Origin: Patescibacteria group bacterium
GTDB lineage: Bacteria > Patescibacteriota > Minisyncoccia > Minisyncoccales > GWA2-38-27
NCBI GenBank assembly: GCA_020148045.1
Contig: JAHCRG010000003.1
Coordinates: 1-32,086, forward strand
Direction: 5' to 3'
Length of the DNA stretch: 32,086 bases
Of this stretch, positions 22,464-32,086 are shown piece by piece. Under the pieces are notes generated by a model. It ran no database searches. It was not told where the DNA came from and worked only from the letters and a program-made list of their open reading frames with translations. Positions within the stretch are counted from its first letter, which is position 1. Each line of letters opens with the position of its first letter. The position numbers were made by a program, and so were the translations under genes.

Positions 22464-23258
22464 ATGACAAAAGAACTAAAATTTGCTATCAAGCTAGCTA
22501 AGGACGCGGGCAAGATTGTAATAGGTGGACTTGATAAAGTTGTAGTAAAAAAAAGCAAAGCTGACAAGCGGGATATTTATACAAATATAGATCGGGAAGC
22601 AGAGAGGATGATAATAAATAGAATCAAAAAGAAATATCCCCATCATAAGATTTATGGGGAGGAGTATGGGAAGATCGATGCAGAAAGTGATTATGTCTGG
22701 ATAATTGACCCAATTGATGGCACAAAATATTATGTAGCAGGTATTAAGCTTTTTGATGTCTCAATTGCCTTGTGGAAGGGCGATACGCCAATTGTCGGAG
22801 TGGTCTATTTACCGGCATTGAATGATATCTATTTCGCAGAAAAAGGAAAAGGCGCTTTTCATAATCAAAAAAGACTAAGAGTTTCGAATGTCAACAGGTT
22901 GAATGAATCAATAATTTATTTGGATATAACTGGTAGCAATAAATTAAAAGCAGAGGAACAAAAAATCACTATGAGAAGATTAGAGTTGATTTTTAAAAAT
23001 GTTTATCGTTTTCGTGCTTTTGGATTAGGAGCTGTTGCTTGTTGTTATACTGCCCAGGGAGGTTATGACGGGTATTTTGATTTAACCGGTAAAGAAAAAA
23101 TTTTAGATATAGCAGCAGGTATAGCTATTGCCAAAGAGGCCGGGGCTAAAGTTACTGGACTGGACGGAAAGTATCACGGCCAAGATACATCTAACATTGT
23201 AATAACAAACGGAAAAATTCACAATAAATTTCTGAAATTATTAAATAGTGTTAAATAA
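22464..23258 (+). CDS. Inositol monophosphatase family protein (SuhB-like)
   Basis: GEE, WIIDPIDGTK, D.AAG..I.KEAG. Confidence 0.9.
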   Translation: MTKELKFAIKLAKDAGKIVIGGLDKVVVKKSKADKRDIYTNIDREAERMIINRIKKKYPHHKIYGEEYGKIDAESDYVWIIDPIDGTKYYVAGIKLFDVSIALWKGDTPIVGVVYLPALNDIYFAEKGKGAFHNQKRLRVSNVNRLNESIIYLDITGSNKLKAEEQKITMRRLELIFKNVYRFRAFGLGAVACCYTAQGGYDGYFDLTGKEKILDIAAGIAIAKEAGAKVTGLDGKYHGQDTSNIVITNGKIHNKFLKLLNSVK

Positions 23259-23290
23259 ACCCTATCACCTTATGCTTAAGGTGATAGGGT
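23259..23290. repeat. Perfect 14-bp-stem intergenic palindrome (REP-like or terminator)
   Basis: ACCCTATCACCTTA-TGCT-TAAGGTGATAGGGT starting right after the stop codon; no T tail on the plus strand. Confidence 0.85.
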
Positions 23291-23307
23291 AAATCTATAT
23301 CTTTTTA

Positions 23308-23335
23308 TTAAAAGAAAAAAGAGCTATTAGCTCTT
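23308..23335 (-). terminator. Probable trpS terminator
   Basis: AAGAGCT-att-AGCTCTT stem at 23319-23335 followed on the minus strand by a T-rich run. Confidence 0.5.
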
Positions 23336-23359
23336 ATTGAAAAAGAAAAATAATTATAA

Positions 23360-24337
23360 TTAGGCAAGACCCATTTTGGTGCGGGTTTCTTGGATGGTGC
23401 TTTCGGCGATAGCGCTGGCTCTTTTGACCCCTACCTTAAGAGTTTCTTGAACATAAACTTCTCGTCTGAGAAGTTCTTTTCTTTTCCGGCGGAAAGGTTC
23501 CAAGGAGTTAATCAAAAGTTCAGCTAAAGATTTTTTAAAGTAAGCATAACCTTTGCCTTTGAAAGTTTTTTCTATTTCTTTTATTGGTTTTTCGCTAAAC
23601 AAACCATAAATTGTTAAAAGATTTGAAATTCCTGGTTTTCTTTGAAGATTATACTTTATTTGCTTTCCAGTGTCAGTTACAGCTGACATTATTTTTTTCT
23701 TAATTTCTTCTGGCTCTTCAAACAGAGAAATATAGCTTTGGGGTCCCAATGATTTTGACATTTTTTGCTTGGGATTATTTAAAGCCATAATTTTTGCTCC
23801 AAGTTTTGGGAGTAGGGCTTTGGGTTCAACAAAGGTTTTGCCAAATTTCTGGTTAAATTTTCTGGCAATTGTTCTTGCTAATTCAATATGTTGGACCTGG
23901 TCTTTTCCCACTGGCACTGCTTCTGTCTTATAAAGTAAAATGTCAGCTGCCTGCAAAATTGGATAGACCAAGAGGCCAGCATTAATATTCTTTTTAAATT
24001 GTTTGGCCTTTTCTTTGTATTGGGTCATTCTTTCTAAATCTCCAATCGGACAAACAGTATTTAAGAGCCAGCAGAGCTCAGTATGTTCTTTGACATCTGA
24101 TTGGATAAAGAAAATACTTTTTTGAGGGTCAATGCCAGCTGCCAGATAAACGATAGCAGTTTCTAAAATGTTTTTTTGAAGCTCTTTGGGTTTATAGGGA
24201 ATAGTTAAAGAGTGTAAGTCAGCAATAAAAAAGATACACTCATTTTTTTCTTGGAGTTTAATCCATTGTTTGATAGCTCCCAGATAATTTCCTATATGTA
24301 TTGAGCCGGTTGGCTGAATACCGCTTAAAGCTCGCAT
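23360..24337 (-). CDS. trpS: Tryptophan--tRNA ligase
   Basis: SGIQPTG.IHIGNYLGA, YP.LQAADIL, VPVGKDQ.QHIE, KMSKS. Confidence 0.98.
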   Translation of the reverse strand: MRALSGIQPTGSIHIGNYLGAIKQWIKLQEKNECIFFIADLHSLTIPYKPKELQKNILETAIVYLAAGIDPQKSIFFIQSDVKEHTELCWLLNTVCPIGDLERMTQYKEKAKQFKKNINAGLLVYPILQAADILLYKTEAVPVGKDQVQHIELARTIARKFNQKFGKTFVEPKALLPKLGAKIMALNNPKQKMSKSLGPQSYISLFEEPEEIKKKIMSAVTDTGKQIKYNLQRKPGISNLLTIYGLFSEKPIKEIEKTFKGKGYAYFKKSLAELLINSLEPFRRKRKELLRREVYVQETLKVGVKRASAIAESTIQETRTKMGLA

Positions 24338-24340
24338 AAA

Positions 24341-26020
24341 TTAAACTTCGATTATTACTGGTAATATTATTGGTCTTCTTTTGGTTTTTGAAAAGAGAAA
24401 TTGGCCAATCTTATTTCTGATTTCGTCTTTAACGTAGACCCAGTTAACAGCTCCGCCGCTTCCAGCTGCTTTATCCACAATATTAATTACTTTTTTCCGG
24501 GTTTGAGCAAGCAATTCCTTTGATTCTCTTAAATAAACGAACCCTCTTGATATTATATCAGGAGAACCCCTTACTTGACCAGTAGTCCTATCCACAATTG
24601 CCACAATAACAAACATCCCATCTTCTGCCAGCATTTGGCGATCTCTTAGAACAACCTCGCCAACATCTCCAATACCCAAACCATCAACCATAACATAATT
24701 TGAGGGGACAGTTTTTTTATCTATAGAGATTCTCTCTTTGTCTAAATTAATTATTTGGCCATTTTCAGCTACTAGGATGTTTTTTCTGGGTATTCCTTCT
24801 TCTTCGGCTAACTCAGCATGCCTAACTAACATTGAATAGCGGCCATAAATAGGGAGAAAGAATTTCGGTTTCATAATTCTGACCATTTCTTTTAATTCTT
24901 CCTGTTTAGCATGACCTGAGGCATGGATATCCATCATTTTATAGTGAAAAACTTTAGCTCCTTGACGGTGAAATGCATCTTTTAAAATCTGAACTGTTCT
25001 TTCATTTCCAGGAACTACAGATGAAGAGAAAACTACTTCGTCTCCCTTTTTTAAGTGGATAAATTTATGTTCCCGATTGGCGATTCTCATAAAAACCGCA
25101 CCCTCTTCTCCCTGAGCGCCGGTACAAATAATAGTTATTTTTGAATCAGGGAATTTGTTAATGTCTTTTGTTTTTATAAAAGTTCCTTTTTTGGCTTTGA
25201 TTATTTTTAAAGTCTGAGCAATCTCAATATTACTTTTCATGCTATATCCTTCAATGGCTACCTTCCTGCCGTATTTTTCTGAGAGAGTAATTAATTGCTG
25301 AACCCTGTTAATAAGAGAAGCAAAGGAGGCAGCAATAATTCTCCCTTGGGCTTTTTGGAAAATTTTATCTAAATTTTCAAAAATTGTTTTCTCAGAACGG
25401 GAATGACTTTCTTCCTCTTCGGCTCCAGTAGATTCAGACATTAAAAGCAGAATGCCTCTTCGGCCAATCTTTTTTAATTTCTTAAAATCGGTTGGAGGTT
25501 CATTAACCGGCGATTCGTCAAATTTAAAATCAGAGGTATGGATAATATTCCCAACAGGGGTATTAATAAACAATCCAAAATTATCTGGAATGTTATGATT
25601 GAGTCGGAAAAATTCAGTTCGAAACGGCCCTAAGTTAATCTTAGCTCCATCTTTTATTTCCTTTATATTAAGTTTAGGTTGGTTAGGAAAATCTTCCTGT
25701 CTTTTTAAAACCATTCCTTTGGTTAGAGAACCGCCATACATTGGGATCGGACCAAGCCTTGGGATGATATAGGGGATAGCTCCAATATGATCATAATGGC
25801 CGTGAGTAAGAAAAACTCCTAAAATATTTTTTTCTTTGCTTTTAAGATAAGAGATATTGGGAATAATACAATCAATTCCTGGCATGTTTTCTCCTGGAAA
25901 ACCAAGGCCCATATCAATAATCAAAATTCCCCCTTTATATTCAAATAGAATCATATTCAATCCAACTTCCCCCAAACCTCCGAGGGGAATTATTCTGAGA
26001 TTTGATTGAGTTTTTTTCAT
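24341..26020 (-). CDS. rnj: Ribonuclease J (beta-CASP metallo-beta-lactamase)
   Basis: IIPLGGLGEVG.N, THGHYDHIGA, TGAQGE, HASGH; ATG at 26020 (the track's 26047 start lies inside the tRNA). Confidence 0.95.
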   Translation of the reverse strand: MKKTQSNLRIIPLGGLGEVGLNMILFEYKGGILIIDMGLGFPGENMPGIDCIIPNISYLKSKEKNILGVFLTHGHYDHIGAIPYIIPRLGPIPMYGGSLTKGMVLKRQEDFPNQPKLNIKEIKDGAKINLGPFRTEFFRLNHNIPDNFGLFINTPVGNIIHTSDFKFDESPVNEPPTDFKKLKKIGRRGILLLMSESTGAEEEESHSRSEKTIFENLDKIFQKAQGRIIAASFASLINRVQQLITLSEKYGRKVAIEGYSMKSNIEIAQTLKIIKAKKGTFIKTKDINKFPDSKITIICTGAQGEEGAVFMRIANREHKFIHLKKGDEVVFSSSVVPGNERTVQILKDAFHRQGAKVFHYKMMDIHASGHAKQEELKEMVRIMKPKFFLPIYGRYSMLVRHAELAEEEGIPRKNILVAENGQIINLDKERISIDKKTVPSNYVMVDGLGIGDVGEVVLRDRQMLAEDGMFVIVAIVDRTTGQVRGSPDIISRGFVYLRESKELLAQTRKKVINIVDKAAGSGGAVNWVYVKDEIRNKIGQFLFSKTKRRPIILPVIIEV

Positions 26021-26105
26021 GGTGCCGAGGGTGGGATTTGAACCCACAAACCATAAAGGTATACGGCTCTGAACCGTATGTGTTTGCCAATTTCACCACC
26101 TCGGC
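26020..26105 (-). tRNA. tRNA-Leu (CAG) with encoded CCA
   Basis: GCCGAGG/CCTCGGC acceptor stem, TACGG-TTCAGAG-CCGTA anticodon arm, long variable arm, GTGGG-TTCAAAT-CCCAC T arm, ACCA end; 86 nt. Confidence 0.96.
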
Positions 26106-26699
26106 TTAACCTTTTAAAAAGTCCAAGTTTTTCGGGATTGATTTTCTGGGTTTTTCAAAACGGAGCTTAGGAACTTTTTTATAATTTTTATTTTTAATCC
26201 AACCCTTTTTAGTATAGAAATAGCACGCTCCTTTCATTGCTCCCAGTTCCTCATAAATATTTTCATTTTTTTCAGAAACCCAATTTGCTGTTTTTAGAGT
26301 TTTTTGAGAGGGGTTTATCATTACAACGGCATATTCAGCAGATATATTTATGGAATCTCCCGGCTTGGCTTTCACTGCTATAACATCCTCAACAATTTCA
26401 ATAGCTTTGCCTTTAGTTTTTTGCATTAAAAAGATTGCTTCCCCTTCTAAAACTATATAGAGTTCTGGAAAGTTTTTTGAGTTCCGATTACCTTTAGTTC
26501 GGACAAATTCTTCTCCTAACATTTGGGGGGGGACAACGGTGATATCATATCTTAATTCTCCTTTCTTTTTTAATCCTCTATACATATAATAAAGTTCAAG
26601 ATTAGGAGCTGTTTTAAGCCACTCTTTGTCATAGATAACATCCTTCATATCATGGAGATAACGGATGTCTGGTGTTTTATCTTTTAAATCCACTTCCAT
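26106..26699 (-). CDS. Cupin-type (archaeal-like) glucose-6-phosphate isomerase family protein
   Basis: LYYMYR...[19 protein letters not shown]...PELY.VLEGEA.FLMQ...GACY; ATG26699 chosen, overlapping the upstream gene end by 16 nt. Confidence 0.75.
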
Positions 26700-28657
26700 A
26701 CTCTTTTTGTTTTGATATACCACTTTTCAATTCCTGAGAAACGTTTTGAGGGGTCAACAATTTTTTCTACTATTATTCCTTTTATTTCTTTTGATACCAG
26801 ATAAATATAATCTGGACTATACAAAAATACTACTGGAACGTCTTCAATTAAGATGTCTTGAAAAAGGGATAGTTTTTCAGCTCGGGTCTCAGGGATTGGA
26901 GATTTTCTATTTTCTTCCAATAATTTATCTGCTTTACTATTCTCATATAAAGCTAAATTTAATCCCGGGTCTTTTTTCTGGGAAGAATGCCAGAAAGGAA
27001 AAGGGTCAGGAACAGCTCCTAAAACTTCTCCAAAAAGCAAACTTTCGTAATTTCTTGGTTTAATAAAGTCCTGCTCTAGTTGGAAAAGAGGAAAGGTTTG
27101 GATTTCAACTTCTGCTCCTAATATTTTCCATTGTTCTTTTAGGATTTCAGCAACCCTAATCATTTGAAGCTGTTCAACAGTTACTAAGCTAAACTTTAAC
27201 AATAGAATTTCTTCTGGTTCTTGGAAGCAGATTTCATTTAATTTGGCTCTGGTGCTTTTGCCTACAGTCCCTGTTCCTTTTGTATAACCCCATGGTTTTA
27301 GGACATCTTCATAATATTTTTCCTGAAATCTAATTACTGCCTGCTTTGTTTTTTCACCAAAATAGCCGGTTATTTCTCCTTCAGGATATATGTCTGGAAA
27401 CTTAGCCAAGCATTTCTGAAGTTCTGTTACTTCTTTTCCTTTTGACCCTTTTGTTAAGCGGCTTTTAAATTCAAAAGCAGGTTTTTTAATAATAATCTTT
27501 TCCCTTAATCCGTCTTGGTTTTCGTCTTTAAACCCAGCTTCTTCTAATATGTTTTTTGCTTTTTCAATATCAAATTCATAAATTTCTGAAGGTGCGTCAA
27601 GCCCATAGATTTCTGGCAAAATGGGGGATTGGACAATTTTTTGGCCAATTTCTTTTTTGTTAACCCCATAATTTAGAGCTAACCGGACTTCTTTTTCAGC
27701 CAGGACTTTTGATTTTTCTTGATTGAAAAACACTGCAAAATATCTTGGCAGAGAGAGCAAATAAGTTCGCCAATTTCCACCAATATTTGCCAGCGAGCTT
27801 AAGGATAGCCCTTTAATTTTCCCTTGCTCAGCTGTTTTAATTAGTTCTTCTTCATTATCAAAAAATACAAATTTGATTTTAGAAATGTAGGGTTTTTTCC
27901 CGGAATGAAGAGAGTTAGCGACCAAGGTTAAAGATTTTATCCAGTTAGAATTTTGTTTTATCTTTTTTAATTTGTAAAGACCTGATCCTATTGGTTTTAA
28001 GTTAGAGGATTCAAAAGCAAAGTTCTCTGGAGAGACATTCTCCCAAATATGCTTTGGCAAAATCTTTAAGGTGCAGTTTTCCAGAAAAGCACTGTAGGGC
28101 TTTCTTAATGTAAATTTAACTCCCAAATCATTAATTTTTTCTATTTCTACCCCCACCCAGTTTGCCTGGAGAGGACTTTTGAAATCCGGGTTTTGGATTG
28201 TTTTGACAGTAAAAATTATGTCGTCAGCAGTAAGTGGGGTTTTGTCTTGCCAGAAAAGATTTTCTTTTAGATAAAATTTATAAACTTTCCCATCTTCTTC
28301 AATTTCAGGATATCCTTTGGCTAAGTCAGGAACTATTTGTAAGTTTTCATCGTATTTCATTAAACCAGAAAAGATAAGCTGGACTAAGTCCCGGTCAACA
28401 TCAGAATTAGCGTAGACGGGATTGATAAATCTCGGTTGGCCAATTACTCCTTCAGTGTGAGTTCCTCCTCGGGCCGGCGCGATTTCAGTATTTTTAAAAT
28501 AAAGATTAATTAAAAGAAAAGTGAAAGAACCGAGGGCTAAAAGAAAAAAAGCAAAAAAAGCGATTTTTTCTTTTTTCGTTAGAACTTTAAAAAATTGCCT
28601 CCACTGAGATTTGGCGGGCCATTTTTCTATAAATAAAAATTTCCTCTTTTTTCTCAT
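26684..28657 (-). CDS. ABC transporter substrate-binding protein, family 5 (OppA/DppA-like), with N-terminal TM anchor and inserted peptidoglycan-binding domain
   Basis: GG...[25 protein letters not shown]...[27 protein letters not shown]; ATG28657 preferred. Confidence 0.85.
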
Positions 28658-28662
28658 AGTCA

Positions 28663-28698
28663 ATGACCTATTTCCGACGACCGTCAAAAATAGGTCAT
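28663..28698. repeat. Long intergenic palindrome between secG and the SBP gene
   Basis: ATGACCTATTT/AAATAGGTCAT 11-bp arms, extended on the minus strand by G-U pairs and GAC/GTC. Confidence 0.8.
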
Positions 28699-28706
28699 AT
28701 CAGAAG

Positions 28707-28925
28707 TTAGAGAATGAGATTTGACAAGGCAAAAACAATAAATAAAACTCCGCAGATTATAGTTGCCCAAAAGATTTTCTTTTGAATACCTCGTCGAGTG
28801 GCGTAAAAACTACCTCCTTCGCCTCCAAAAGCAGACCCCAAAGCAGTCCCTCTTTGCTGAAGGAGGATGAAGACAATTAAGAGTATAGCAACAATGATTT
28901 GAGCGATTGGTAAGAGTGTTTGCAT
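28707..28925 (-). CDS. secG: Preprotein translocase subunit SecG
   Basis: Two TM segments, ILLQQRG..LGSAFGG...TRRG..K. Confidence 0.93.
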   Translation of the reverse strand: MQTLLPIAQIIVAILLIVFILLQQRGTALGSAFGGEGGSFYATRRGIQKKIFWATIICGVLFIVFALSNLIL

Positions 28926-28928
28926 ATT

Positions 28929-29309
28929 TTATTCAATAATTTCTACAATTCTCCTTCTTTTTGGAGTATAGAGACCGAAAATAAAGTTTAAGGCCCAGAT
29001 TATGACTGTTGTCCAGAAAAGGGGAAGGAGACCAGTAATTTCTAAATCTCTTGGGAAAAGAATCTCCATTAGCCAGACCAAGCCCATATTTATCACTAAA
29101 CTAAATAGGCCAAAAGTTAAGATTCTTAAAGGCAGGGAGATTGCTTTTAAAATTGGTTTAAGAGAAAAATTAATAAGACCTAAAACTCCTCCAATTATCA
29201 AAAGCATTAAAAAAGTGCCATAAAATTCTACTCCTGGAACAAACTTAGCAGCCAAAAAAAGACCTAAGGCCCCAGAGATAATATGAAAGAGGGGTTTTCC
29301 TATATACAT
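28929..29309 (-). CDS. 4-TM phage holin family (YvlD/DUF360-like) membrane protein
   Basis: LG.IN..LKPILK.ISLPL.ILTFGLFSLVIN signature; ATG29309 preferred over TTG29351. Confidence 0.8.
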   Translation of the reverse strand: MYIGKPLFHIISGALGLFLAAKFVPGVEFYGTFLMLLIIGGVLGLINFSLKPILKAISLPLRILTFGLFSLVINMGLVWLMEILFPRDLEITGLLPLFWTTVIIWALNFIFGLYTPKRRRIVEIIE

Positions 29310-29322
29310 ATATATTATATAT

Positions 29323-29351
29323 ATACTATCAAATTTTTTGCAAGAGGTCAA
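29323..29351 (-). promoter_or_regulatory. Probable promoter of the holin-secG...trpS operon
   Basis: TTGACC (29351-29346), 17 nt, TAGTAT (29328-29323). Confidence 0.55.
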
Positions 29352-29355
29352 TCTA

Positions 29356-29384
29356 TTGAAATCTTTTGAGGCTTGGGGTATAAT
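29356..29384 (+). promoter_or_regulatory. uvrA promoter, near-leaderless
   Basis: TTGAAA (29356-29361), 17 nt, TATAAT (29379-29384); ATG at 29394. Confidence 0.7.
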
Positions 29385-29393
29385 AGATTACTT

Positions 29394-32086
29394 ATGGAAA
29401 AGGATGTTATTAAAATTCGGGGGGCTAAGGTTCATAATCTAAAGAATATTAATATTGATATTCCCAGGAATAAATTGGTGGTGATTACCGGGATTTCAGG
29501 TTCCGGCAAGTCCTCCTTGGCTTTTGATACTTTATATGCTGAAGGGCAGAGAAGATATGTTGAAAGCTTGTCTGCCTACGCCAGGCAGTTTTTAGGAGTA
29601 ATGGATAAGCCCGAGGTAGAAAGAATTGAAGGGGTAAGTCCGGCTATTTCTATTGACCAAAGAAAAGCAGCTCATAACCCCCGTTCCACAGTGGGCACAA
29701 TAACGGAGATTTACGATTATCTCCGTCTTTTATTTGCCAGAGTTGGAAAGCCCCACTGTCCAAAATGTAAAAAGCCAATTTCCCGGCAGACAGTTGACCA
29801 GATTGTTGAGCAGGTTTTGAAACTTCCTCAAAAATCAGAGATTACTGTTTTAGGTCCGGTAGTTCGTTCCCAAAAAGGAGAACATCAAGGGACTCTGGAG
29901 GAAATTCAAAGAGGAGGATTTGTTAGGGTAAGAGTTGATGGAATAATTTACAGGGTTGAAGAAATATTAGGAAAAAGTTTAGACAGAAATAAAAAACACA
30001 ATATTGAAGTAGTGGTGGATAGATTAGTGATTGGAGAGGACTTAGAAAAATCAAGATTGATTGATTCTTTGGAAATTGGCTTGAGGATCGGGAAAGGCAT
30101 AGTGACAGTAGGTCAGAGAACGAGGAACAAAGAACAAAGAACAAATGATTTAACATTTAGTGAGCGTTTTGCTTGTGAAGAATGCGGCATTTCTTTGCCT
30201 GAATTGGAGCCGCGTCTTTTTTCATTTAATAGTCCTTATGGTGCCTGCCTAGGATGTATGGGATTAGGTGAGAAATTAGAAGTTGACCCAAAGTTAATTA
30301 TTCCAAATCCAAACTTAACTATTGCTGAAGGAGCAATTAGGCCCTTGGTGCGGGCTTCAAATAAAATTGGCAGACGGAGTTATTTTCGAGCGAAGCGAGA
30401 AAATAAGGTTCTACCGAAGGCAGGTTCTTATTTTTGGTGGCAGCTTTCTGATTTAGCAAATAGATATAATTTTTCTTTGGACCAACCAGTTGGGACTTTG
30501 TCTGAGAAAATTTTAGATATTGTCCTTTACGGAAATAAAGATTTTGAAGGCGTAATTCCTAGTCTTGAAAGAAAGTATCATGAAACTAATTCCGACTGGA
30601 CCCGTCAGGAAATTGAACAGTATATGGTAAAAAGACAATGTCCCAAATGTTTGGGAAAAAGATTAAAACCAGAAGTGTTAGCGGTGACAGTAGCTGGCAA
30701 GTCAATTGATGAAATAGTAGGGATGCCAATCGATAAAGTAAAAGTTTTTTTTGGAGTCAGACCCGAGTCTGACCCCAAAGTGGCTCAGCCTATAATTAAG
30801 GAAATTCTAAGTCGCCTTCAATTTTTAATTGATGTTGGGCTTGATTATTTAACTTTGGACAGGAAAGCCGCTACCTTGGCCGGCGGCGAGGAAGAAAGGA
30901 TAAGATTAGCCACCCAAATTGGTTCAAAATTAACTGGAGTTTTATATATTTTAGATGAGCCCTCAATAGGTCTTCATCCAAGAGACCAGGGAAGATTGAT
31001 TGGGACACTTAAAAAATTAAGAGATCTTGGCAATACGGTAATTATCGTTGAGCACGATAATCAAACCATTCGCGCGGCTGACTGGGTAATTGACGTTGGT
31101 CCCGGAGCAGGAAAGCACGGCGGCCGGATTGTTTTTAAGGGGACACCAAAACAATTACTAAAGTCAAAAACTTTAACAGGTGAATATTTATCAGGGCGGA
31201 AGAGGGTTGAAGTGACGTCAGAAAAATCAAAAATCAAAACTCCCGTCTCCGCTAAAGCTTCGGCGGGCAAGCAAAACTATTTAATAATTAAAGGGGCTCA
31301 GGAGCATAATCTAAAAAATATTGATGTTAGAATTCCGCTTGGTAAATTTGTTTGTATAACTGGAGTTTCTGGGTCAGGGAAAAGCTCTCTAATGGATGAT
31401 ATTTTAGCCCGAGCTTTGCTTAAAAAATTTTACAAAACAAAAGAAGAGCCAGGTAAACACAAGAAGATTTTAGGCAGTGAGTTTTTAAATAAGGTTGTTT
31501 TAGTTGACCAATCCCCAATTGGTCGAACGCCCCGTTCTGATCCAGCAACTTATACTGGCGCCTTTTCTTACATCAGAGAACTTTTTTCAAAGACCCGGGA
31601 AGCCAGAGTTAGGGGCTATTCGCCCGGCCGTTTTAGTTTTAATGTGAAAGGCGGTAGGTGCGAGGCCTGTGAAGGTCAAGGCCGGATTAAAGTTGAAATG
31701 TATTTTTTGCCAGATGTTTATGTTGAATGTAAAGAATGCAAGGGAAAAAGATATAATAAAGAAGCCCTTGAAATTGAATACAAGGGAAAAAACATTGCTG
31801 AGGTTTTAGAAATGACAGTTGAAGAAGCCTTAGATTTTTTCAAAAACATCCCTGGTCTTTCCCAGAAATTAAAAACCTTAAATGAAGTTGGCCTATCCTA
31901 TGTTCAACTTGGACAGCCGGCCCCCTCTTTATCTGGAGGAGAAGCCCAAAGAGTAAAATTAGCTACTGAGCTTTCCAGAAAGTCCACTGGTAAAACTTTA
32001 TATATCTTAGACGAACCAACAACTGGTCTTCACCCGGATGATATTAAAAAATTGATTAAGGTCTTAAGAGAATTAGTTAATAAAGG
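29394..32086 (+). CDS. uvrA: Excinuclease ABC subunit UvrA, 3'-truncated by the window edge (absent from the ORF track)
   Basis: [18 protein letters not shown]...[28 protein letters not shown]; second Walker A GVSGSGKS; [12 protein letters not shown]; LDEPTTGLH in the same frame at the window end. Confidence 0.98.
30114..30148 (+). repeat. Heptamer tandem repeat (CAAAGAA-like x5) in uvrA
   Basis: CAGAGAA CGAGGAA CAAAGAA CAAAGAA CAAATGA, encoding [11 protein letters not shown]. Confidence 0.7.
30380..30434. mobile_element. 48-nt in-frame palindromic insertion in uvrA flanked by a TTATTTT direct repeat
   Basis: TTATTTTC-GAGCGAAGCGA-GAAAATAA hairpin plus CTACC-GAA-GGCAG; TTATTTT at 30380 and 30428; peptide [19 protein letters not shown]. 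Confidence 0.7.
30750..30779. repeat. Palindrome inside uvrA
   Basis: TTTGG-A-GTCAGAC-CCGA-GTCTGAC-C-CCAAA, encoding GVRPESDPK. Confidence 0.75.
31222..31272. repeat. Heptamer repeat (AAAAATC x2 + AAAACTC) followed by a GC-rich palindrome in the uvrA linker
   Basis: CCCGTC-TCCGCTAAAGCTTC-GGCGGG at 31242-31267, encoding PVSAKASAG. Confidence 0.75.

Follow-up and report, generated by a model that had tools for sequence, protein, structure and literature searches.

A tRNA-Leu gene abutting the RNase J start codon points to possible mitochondria-like tRNA punctuation in a Patescibacteria lineage

In a 32,086-nucleotide (nt) stretch of the genome of a Patescibacteria group bacterium (contig JAHCRG010000003.1 of the GenBank assembly GCA_020148045.1, positions 1 to 32,086 of the forward strand; hereafter, the window), a gene for tRNA-Leu(CAG) lies on the minus strand between the co-directional genes for glucose-6-phosphate isomerase (GPI) and RNase J (rnj), with no room for a spacer, a promoter, or a leader. 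On balance, we favor, with modest confidence, the interpretation that cutting this tRNA out of a shared transcript would leave the rnj mRNA with only 0–2 nt of leader, in a manner resembling the tRNA punctuation of mitochondria, and that this arrangement would be a lineage-wide one, in which the CCA end encoded by this particular tRNA gene is incidental.

Across the GPI/tRNA-Leu/rnj junction, the minus strand reads ...GGT TAA/GCCGAGG...CCTCGGC-A-CC-[A]TG AAA AAA ACT (coordinates in Table 1). The TAA stop codon of the GPI gene (26108-26106) touches G1 of the tRNA (26105), leaving a 5' gap of 0 nt, and the ATG of rnj (26020-26018) starts 2 nt past the discriminator (26023); the tRNA and the two genes share a strand, and with spacers of 0 and 2 nt, their layout is thus that of mitochondria-type punctuation. 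ARAGORN detected a single tRNA in the window, which was tRNA-Leu(CAG) at 26105..26020, and the Rfam tRNA model RF00005 matched 26105..26023, ending at the discriminator, with 57.4 bits against a gathering threshold of 29. The tRNA has the features of a type II leucine tRNA, namely, a 12-nt insert in the variable arm (Rfam), 7 of 7 acceptor pairs, and the discriminator A73, and it is the sole CAG isoacceptor in the tRNA list of the genome. An earlier sequence-only reading of this DNA had described the same layout, with the GPI stop codon against G1 and the A of CCA serving as the A of the rnj ATG, and its coordinates proved to be exact by the sequence, ARAGORN, and Rfam; its statement that no space is left for a promoter outside the tRNA also holds, the gaps between the co-directional genes being 0 and 2 nt. 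When 160 nt around the junction was folded, the acceptor stem was kept and the AUG region was mostly open, with a z value of only −1.9, which is uninformative. A possible pairing of the 5' acceptor strand of the tRNA with the CCTCGG of the rnj PLGG codons was also considered and was dismissed as a coincidence because it is unconserved in 24 abutted relatives.

The product of rnj, when read from the ATG at 26020, belongs to the RNase J family. It scored 559.3 bits with TIGR00649 (cut-off, 400), with position 2 of the model aligned to residue 9, it carries the Pfam domains RNase_J_b_CASP, RNase_J_C, RMMBL, and Lactamase_B (including PF22505, PF17770, and PF07521), and its translation contains HGHYDH, which fits the HxHxDH motif. 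The J1-specific model NF047419 gave 615 bits, which is under its cut-off of 820. We consider it very improbable that rnj is translated on an unprocessed tRNA–mRNA fusion or from another start, either the GTG at 26047 or a downstream codon, with the tRNA acting as a stabilizing 5' structure. The reading frame does extend to GTG 26047 in the list of open reading frames (ORFs), and an equivalent in-frame GTG stands 26–30 nt upstream of the tRNA end in 11 of 24 abutted loci of relatives; however, this GTG, the only in-frame start codon upstream of the ATG, lies within the T-arm, in the conserved T-stem, and is therefore conserved as tRNA and not as protein. Furthermore, the family model begins within the product of ATG 26020, as described above, no other in-frame start codon occurs between the tRNA or the ATG and the conserved LRIIPLGG motif of RNase J, and a folded tRNA only 2 nt upstream would, on general grounds, occupy the mRNA exit path of the ribosome. 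The placement of the RNase J start at ATG 26020 in the sequence-only reading is supported by the position at which the model begins and by the location of the GTG.

A start codon this close to a tRNA is in keeping with translation initiation in this genome, which has no Shine–Dalgarno (SD) signal. SD cores were found upstream of 17% of the first start codons vs 13% at random in-gene positions, and the 35 nt upstream of 376 well-defined starts was A/T-rich and G-poor. The canonical 3' end of bacterial 16S rRNA is GGATCACCTCCTT. Because the 16S rRNA tail of the window's genome reads GGATCACTACTT instead (G000:C21, minus strand; ~638 nt from the contig end when read in reverse), the anti-SD sequence has been lost, which agrees with the absence of an SD signal upstream of genes; in G041, the complete 639,534-bp genome of the related locus L019, the 16S rRNA ends in GGATCACTACAT (about 548306, in reverse orientation). 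The earlier remark that the junction leaves no room for a ribosome-binding site is, hence, correct as to the gaps and moot as to its significance. Moreover, a TANNNT (TATAAT-like) hexamer stands at exactly −12..−7 from the ATG in 44 of the 376 starts, as compared with 5–19 per position between −50 and −20, and T occupies position −1 in 55% of them. This hexamer, at the expected spacing, is a signature of promoter-derived transcripts that start at the A of AUG. Because the spacing fits such a transcription start, the organism probably already translates leaderless mRNAs, and the leaderless route is probably widely used because there is no pairing of SD and anti-SD sequences.

Signals that could give rnj a transcript of its own were sought around the junction. 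In 23200-29500, the number of promoter-like sites was at chance level (24 vs 18.4 ± 3.9 in shuffled sequences), and the scan of the region found no promoter-like or terminator-like site inside the tRNA-Leu gene. We consider it unlikely that rnj is transcribed independently from a promoter in the GPI or tRNA gene, with part or all of the tRNA as its leader, and that the juxtaposition simply reflects genome compaction. Long ORFs cover 89% of the genome, a weak promoter-like site (9/12) is present on the minus strand within the GPI gene at 26573-26544, and the spacer is labile among relatives, all of which would suit this explanation. However, the tRNA itself offers no such site, the T-loop sequence TTCAAAT lacks A2 of a −10 box, and the distribution of −10 boxes upstream of tRNA-Leu was flat over 76 related loci, with no positioned box. 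Even if transcription began upstream, the RNA would contain the entire tRNA all the same, and RNase P cleavage and maturation of the tRNA 3' end would still take place.

The junction was then compared among relatives. A search with the RNase J protein gave 80 loci from metagenome-assembled genomes of Patescibacteria with an identity of 60–83%, the titles of which include Nealsonbacteria, Paceibacterota, and Parcubacteria. By ARAGORN, 76 of these loci have tRNA-Leu(CAG) upstream of, and co-directional with, rnj; among the four loci without the tRNA, three have just 0–132 nt upstream of rnj, and one (L004) has 3 kb with no tRNA. In a second sample of species genomes from the same family and order, partly overlapping the first, the tRNA was upstream in 28/28 usable loci, 6 of which had gaps not exceeding 3 nt. 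In the 76 loci, the gap, taken as the distance between the discriminator and the first nucleotide of the start codon, was 1 nt in 2 loci, 2 nt in 20, 3 nt in 2, 6–15 nt in 8, and 19 to about 1300 nt in 44, that is, the junction was abutted (1–3 nt) in 24 of 76. The gap was never 0 or negative, and the rnj ATG never entered the tRNA body. The abutted loci include 9 different acceptor stems and were scattered in an RNase J tree of 80 rows (25 abutted rows, representing the 24 loci and the window; a quick IQ-TREE run with no bootstrap), which implied at least 18 state changes, 11 of them forced by well-supported (starred) branches. Close sisters differ in the gap, as exemplified by L051 with 2 nt and L042 with 49 nt. 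As for the other end of the tRNA, 19 of 76 loci have the stop codon of the preceding co-directional ORF 0–3 nt from G1, 10 of them at exactly 0 nt; the gene in this position varies, and in the 11 loci where it is a GPI homologue, its stop codon is 0–70 nt from the tRNA. Taken together, the tRNA-Leu(CAG)–rnj layout exceeds chance, and the comparison indicates that the linkage is strongly conserved, and that tight abutment is common, recurrent, and non-obligatory. With respect to the conservation that the sequence-only reading had wished to see checked, the linkage is borne out and the tight abutment is confined to 24 of the 76 loci. An obligatory coupling of the tRNA and rnj has to be given up in view of the variable spacers in 44 of 76 relatives, a finding that this reading had itself named as contrary to it. 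The overlap of CCA with ATG is not a conserved feature either, as the linker in the 20 relatives of the 2-nt class was mostly CT-ATG (13), followed by CC-ATG (5) and CA-ATG (2).

The abutted layout was also found at other tRNA genes. The window's genome (G000) comprises 824,760 bp in 23 contigs, is 97.9% complete, and has 48 tRNA genes. At 25 junctions between a tRNA and a same-strand ORF, listed from crude gene calls made for this analysis, the gaps were 1, 2, 2, 2, 2, 5, 7, 10, and then 21–951 nt. In 5 of the 25, an ATG follows the discriminator after 1–2 nt; these are tRNA-Val(GAC) to an RluA-type pseudouridine synthase (C-ATG), tRNA-Arg(GCG) to RecG (CA-ATG), tRNA-Ser(CGA) to a DUF4446 protein (CT-ATG), tRNA-Gly(TCC) to a 112-aa membrane ORF (CT-ATG), and tRNA-Leu(CAG) to RNase J (CC-ATG), and the genes for RecG, the RluA-type synthase, the DUF4446 protein, and RNase J are real genes. 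At their 5' ends, four tRNAs of the genome are touched by the stop codon of an ORF; one of these is tRNA-Pro(CGG), which is touched by the TAA of the gene for the CCA-adding enzyme (G000:C12:45213-46742). In G041, the 2-nt junction of tRNA-Leu(CAG) with rnj and the 1-nt junction of tRNA-Val(GAC) with rluA recur, and tRNA-Ser(CGA) lies 10 nt from the DUF4446 gene. Among 29 related loci, tRNA-Val(GAC) was upstream of the RluA-type gene in 22, with gaps of 1 nt in 10, 3 nt in 1, 5–7 nt in 5, and 19–219 nt in 6. Judging from these junctions, the abutted layout would be a genome-wide and lineage-wide architecture and not the rnj-centered regulatory device that the sequence-only reading had envisaged; a feedback loop specific to rnj is not supported, and any feedback on RNase J is speculation.

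Several observations were made on these junctions along the way. In the window's genome, several genes of RNA metabolism adjoin tRNA genes, namely, rnj, cca, the rluA-type gene, and rpsO (S15), the last of which lies 5 nt from tRNA-Lys(CTT) and is followed by pnp (G000:C12:52116-52460). In L076, the TAG of a 296-codon ORF shares its G with position 1 of tRNA-Leu (5' end at about 2803), an overlap of 1 nt, and cleavage by RNase P would strip this upstream message of a complete stop codon. In L025, L032, L061, and L072, between tRNA-Leu and rnj, and in L142, between tRNA-Val and the RluA-type gene, an insert of ~135 nt is located right after a relic ATGAA at the tRNA end. This insert has an inverted repeat (CCCCGTTAGA...TCTAACGGGG) at its borders and an internal hairpin, carries a TATAAT-like box (TGTATAAT in L061), and provides a GTG as the new start codon; it resembles a mobile palindromic element that bears a promoter and targets tRNA/start-codon junctions. 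In L181 (G003), tRNA-Leu(CAG) is followed at a 1-nt gap by C-ATGAAAAAAA, with rnj ~800 nt further on, and the place next to the tRNA appears to have been taken over by a different ORF.

The enzymes available for tRNA excision were examined in the genome. RNase P is represented by the genes for both its RNA (RF00010, 108.9 bits) and its protein (PF00825, 94.3 bits), so that the enzyme for the 5' cut is at hand, the cleavage itself being predicted. A CCA-adding enzyme with an HD domain, RNase Y, and PNPase are present as well. A search of this 97.9%-complete genome for RNase Z with TIGR02651 had no hit at E ≤ 0.001, and neither RNase E/G nor RNB-type RNase R/II was found in it; among 41 genomes (the window's and 40 relatives), none had an RNase Z that reached the family cut-off, and G041 and G042 were likewise searched with no RNase Z being found. 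The genome has three other ORFs of the metallo-β-lactamase (MBL) fold, which are a UPF0173/Lactamase_B_3 protein (L084:1195-1902), a ComEC-like domain, and a small MBL protein. Punctuation-type processing, as proposed in the sequence-only reading, accordingly finds backing in the presence of RNase P and in the recurrence of abutment in relatives and at other genes, and falls short at RNase Z; of the two enzymes that it had suggested looking for in the genome, the CCA-adding enzyme is present and RNase Z was not detected.

In six relatives (G002, G011, G013, G020, G022, and G025), ORFs of 253–300 aa align with the two halves of the RNase Z model (E values of 1e-20 to 1e-24) and score far under the family cut-off; they may represent a divergent RNase Z that only part of the family possesses. 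Gaps of 3 nt or less were seen in genomes without any RNase Z match (G000, G041, G016, and G029), and the three scorable genomes in which the partial RNase Z-like ORFs matched best have gaps of 7, 35, and 65 nt, numbers that are too small for a test.

The encoded 3' ends of the tRNAs are also informative. In the window's genome, C74 is encoded in 47 of 48 tRNA genes and the full CCA in only 4, and in G041, the corresponding values are 41/46 and 6/46; the base after C74 is usually A or T (in G000, for example, in C11, C12, C21, and C23, and also in G041). This pattern suggests a tRNA 3'-end pathway that keeps or needs C74. The encoded CCA is not a conserved feature of this tRNA gene, as CC-ATG occurs in 5 of 24 abutted relatives, and the CCA at the rnj junction can most simply be taken as incidental, being composed of the nearly universal C74, a C, and the A of ATG. 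The sequence-only reading had posed a dilemma, in which keeping the encoded CCA destroys the start codon; with so few CCA-encoding tRNA genes and a CCA-adding enzyme at hand, this dilemma probably never arises.

In the mechanism that we favor, the array of the genes for the solute-binding protein (SBP), GPI, tRNA-Leu, RNase J, and tryptophan--tRNA ligase (trpS) would be transcribed as one RNA. RNase P would then cut at G1 of the tRNA, upon which the GPI message would end at its UAA, and an endonuclease other than canonical RNase Z would cut at or just after position 73/74, giving a tRNA that ends in A73 or C74 and an rnj mRNA that begins with 5'-(C)CAUG. The tRNA would be completed by the CCA-adding enzyme, and the rnj mRNA would be translated by the leaderless route. 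The invariable retention of C74 ahead of the AUG suggests that this base is part of either the tRNA product or the recognition site. As candidates, RNase J itself, RNase Y, or the UPF0173 MBL protein could make the 3' cut.

With regard to the first of these candidates, RNase J is the only β-CASP/MBL ribonuclease found in the genome, which also lacks RNase E/G and RNase R. It could be speculated that RNase J is the missing tRNA 3' endonuclease, so that its own message would be born by its own cut at tRNA-Leu(CAG), with a 5'-monophosphate that exposes the message to the 5'-to-3' exonuclease activity of RNase J; the conserved linkage would then be an autoregulatory circuit set within a wider, mitochondria-like punctuation. 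We hold this extension to be rather doubtful.

A somewhat different scheme is one of either/or maturation with feedback, in which RNase Y or RNase J cuts in the 5' region of rnj, PNPase trims the product, and a given precursor yields either the tRNA or the rnj message, with RNase J lowering its own synthesis. The coding 5' end of rnj is indeed A-rich (AUGAAAAAAACUCAAUCAAAUCUC), RNase Y, RNase J, and PNPase are present, unlike RNase Z, RNase E/G, and RNB-type exonucleases, none of which was found, and the linkage of tRNA-Leu(CAG) to rnj is kept in 76 of 77 informative loci although the upstream gene varies. However, the abutment is equally tight at RecG, RluA, DUF4446, and the membrane ORF, where such logic does not apply, 44 of 76 relatives have spacers, and the scheme leaves unexplained how a ribosome would initiate on uncut RNA when a folded tRNA lies 2 nt away from the AUG. 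We therefore consider either/or maturation to be improbable.

Several points weigh against release of the rnj mRNA by tRNA excision as well. A search for RNA sequencing runs containing 24300-27300 of the window listed none, and co-transcription, the cut sites, and the leaderless translation of rnj are all matters that we infer. RNase Z, which makes the 3' cut in mitochondria, was not found in the genome, and we know of no enzyme of this genome that cuts precisely after position 73/74; if RNase Y or RNase J together with PNPase, the sole visible 3' pathway, matures the tRNA, this might consume the 5' end of rnj. The spacers of 19 to about 1300 nt and the differing sisters indicate that abutment is dispensable, and it may be merely the floor reached by deletion bias. 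An S1-like protein of 373 aa is present, which indicates that leadered, SD-independent initiation also exists. It was also considered that relatives with a spacer might transcribe rnj in leaderless form from a promoter of its own, and this idea was rejected because TANNNT stands at −12 in only 5 of the 44; with no fixed −10 box in such loci, rnj appears not to be uniformly leaderless across the clade.

The layout can be compared with several known systems. In animal mitochondria, tRNAs reportedly punctuate the transcripts, as Ojala, Montoya and Attardi are said to have described in 1981. As in that system, tRNA genes here butt against protein genes without a spacer, there is no SD-type ribosome binding, and tRNA excision would set the 3' end of the upstream mRNA and leave a leaderless downstream mRNA. 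The present case differs in that it concerns a bacterial chromosome, in which only about one-fifth of the tRNA-to-gene junctions show abutment and tRNAs flank a minority of the genes, in that the stop codon is complete and hence needs no polyadenylation, and in that no RNase Z/ELAC2 homologue was found in the genome and C74 invariably separates the tRNA from the AUG. Bacterial tRNA–mRNA co-transcripts are exemplified by thrU-tyrU-glyT-thrT-tufB and metY-nusA-infB of E. coli, which have spacers of tens of nucleotides and an SD-led start. In both settings, a tRNA gene stands upstream of a housekeeping gene with conserved linkage, and co-transcription of the two would apply here as well; unlike in E. 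coli, the gap is 2 nt and there is neither an SD nor an anti-SD sequence.

Plant mitochondrial t-elements exemplify the release of RNAs by RNase Z in a tRNA-linked manner. One paper describes tRNA-snoRNA co-transcripts of archaea and plants that are likewise released by RNase Z (PMC4247193). There, as proposed here, the 3' processing of a tRNA would free the 5' end of a functional RNA downstream, whereas the product in the present case would begin at an mRNA start codon, in a bacterium without detectable RNase Z. Mycoplasma genitalium matures tRNA 3' ends without RNase Z and has RNase R. In Propionibacterium acnes, according to another paper, tRNA genes lack CCA, there is no RNase Z homologue, and RNase E is present (PMC3848588). 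The window's genome resembles these two in having CCA-less tRNA genes without an RNase Z homologue, which implies another nuclease, and differs from them in that neither the family of the RNase E of P. acnes nor that of the RNase R of M. genitalium was found in it. The leaderless mRNAs of Actinobacteria and Deinococcus derive from promoters, as stated in three papers (PMC4633059, PMC3848588, and PMC4007540). They share with the present case a 5'-terminal AUG start without SD, and the −10 box at −12..−7 before 44 of 376 genes here is of their kind; unlike their 5' ends, which arise from initiation and carry a triphosphate, the rnj 5' end would arise from RNA processing and is predicted to carry a monophosphate. 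In the literature searched, there was no description of tRNA-punctuated leaderless mRNAs in bacteria or in the candidate phyla radiation.

The other members of the co-directional array are listed in Table 1. The ORF upstream of tRNA-Leu, which the sequence-only reading had called pgi, scored 83.4 bits with PF06560 (gathering threshold, 20.7) over residues 41-185, with no match among NCBIfam models; it is indeed a glucose-6-phosphate isomerase, of the cupin type and not of the classical PGI family. At 26684-26723, the SBP_bac_5 gene (stop at 26684) shares 40 nt with the GPI gene (GTG 26723) when both are taken at their longest frames, and the start of the GPI gene is uncertain, as it may be a codon later than GTG 26723. 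According to the ORF list, trpS begins 3 nt past the rnj stop. The two hairpins after trpS are the sole minus-strand terminator-like sites in 23200-29258; such sites are consensus matches only, with 7 found vs 5.7 expected from shuffled sequences.

Table 1. Features of the minus-strand array around tRNA-Leu(CAG), in window coordinates.
Feature	Positions	Strand	Basis or remark
Solute-binding protein gene, SBP_bac_5 with PG_binding_1 insert	26684..28687	-	Pfam; upstream member of the array
Cupin-type GPI ORF, stop TAA 26108-26106	26106..26723	-	PF06560
tRNA-Leu(CAG), G1 26105 to discriminator A73 26023	26023..26105	-	ARAGORN; Rfam RF00005
Encoded C74-C75-A76; A 26020 doubles as the A of the rnj ATG	26020..26022	-	Sequence
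RNase J gene (rnj), 559 aa, ATG 26020-26018, stop 24343-24341	24341..26020	-	TIGR00649 and Pfam
Tryptophan--tRNA ligase gene (trpS), last of the co-directional array	23360..24337	-	TIGR00233, 340.6 bits
Two terminator-like hairpins after trpS	23259..23335	-	Consensus matches only

This arrangement has a consequence for annotation, in that gene callers that expect a ribosome-binding site or forbid starts beside tRNAs will misplace such starts, for example, at the T-arm GTG 26047. If the proposed mechanism is true, a large group of ultra-small bacteria would make translatable mRNA 5' ends by tRNA excision, a strategy that is textbook knowledge for animal mitochondria and lies outside the standard picture of bacterial gene expression, with neither RNase Z nor SD pairing being involved. 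It would then join three questions on the biology of Patescibacteria, namely, how translation starts, how CCA-less tRNAs are finished, and how operons are organized with almost no intergenic DNA.

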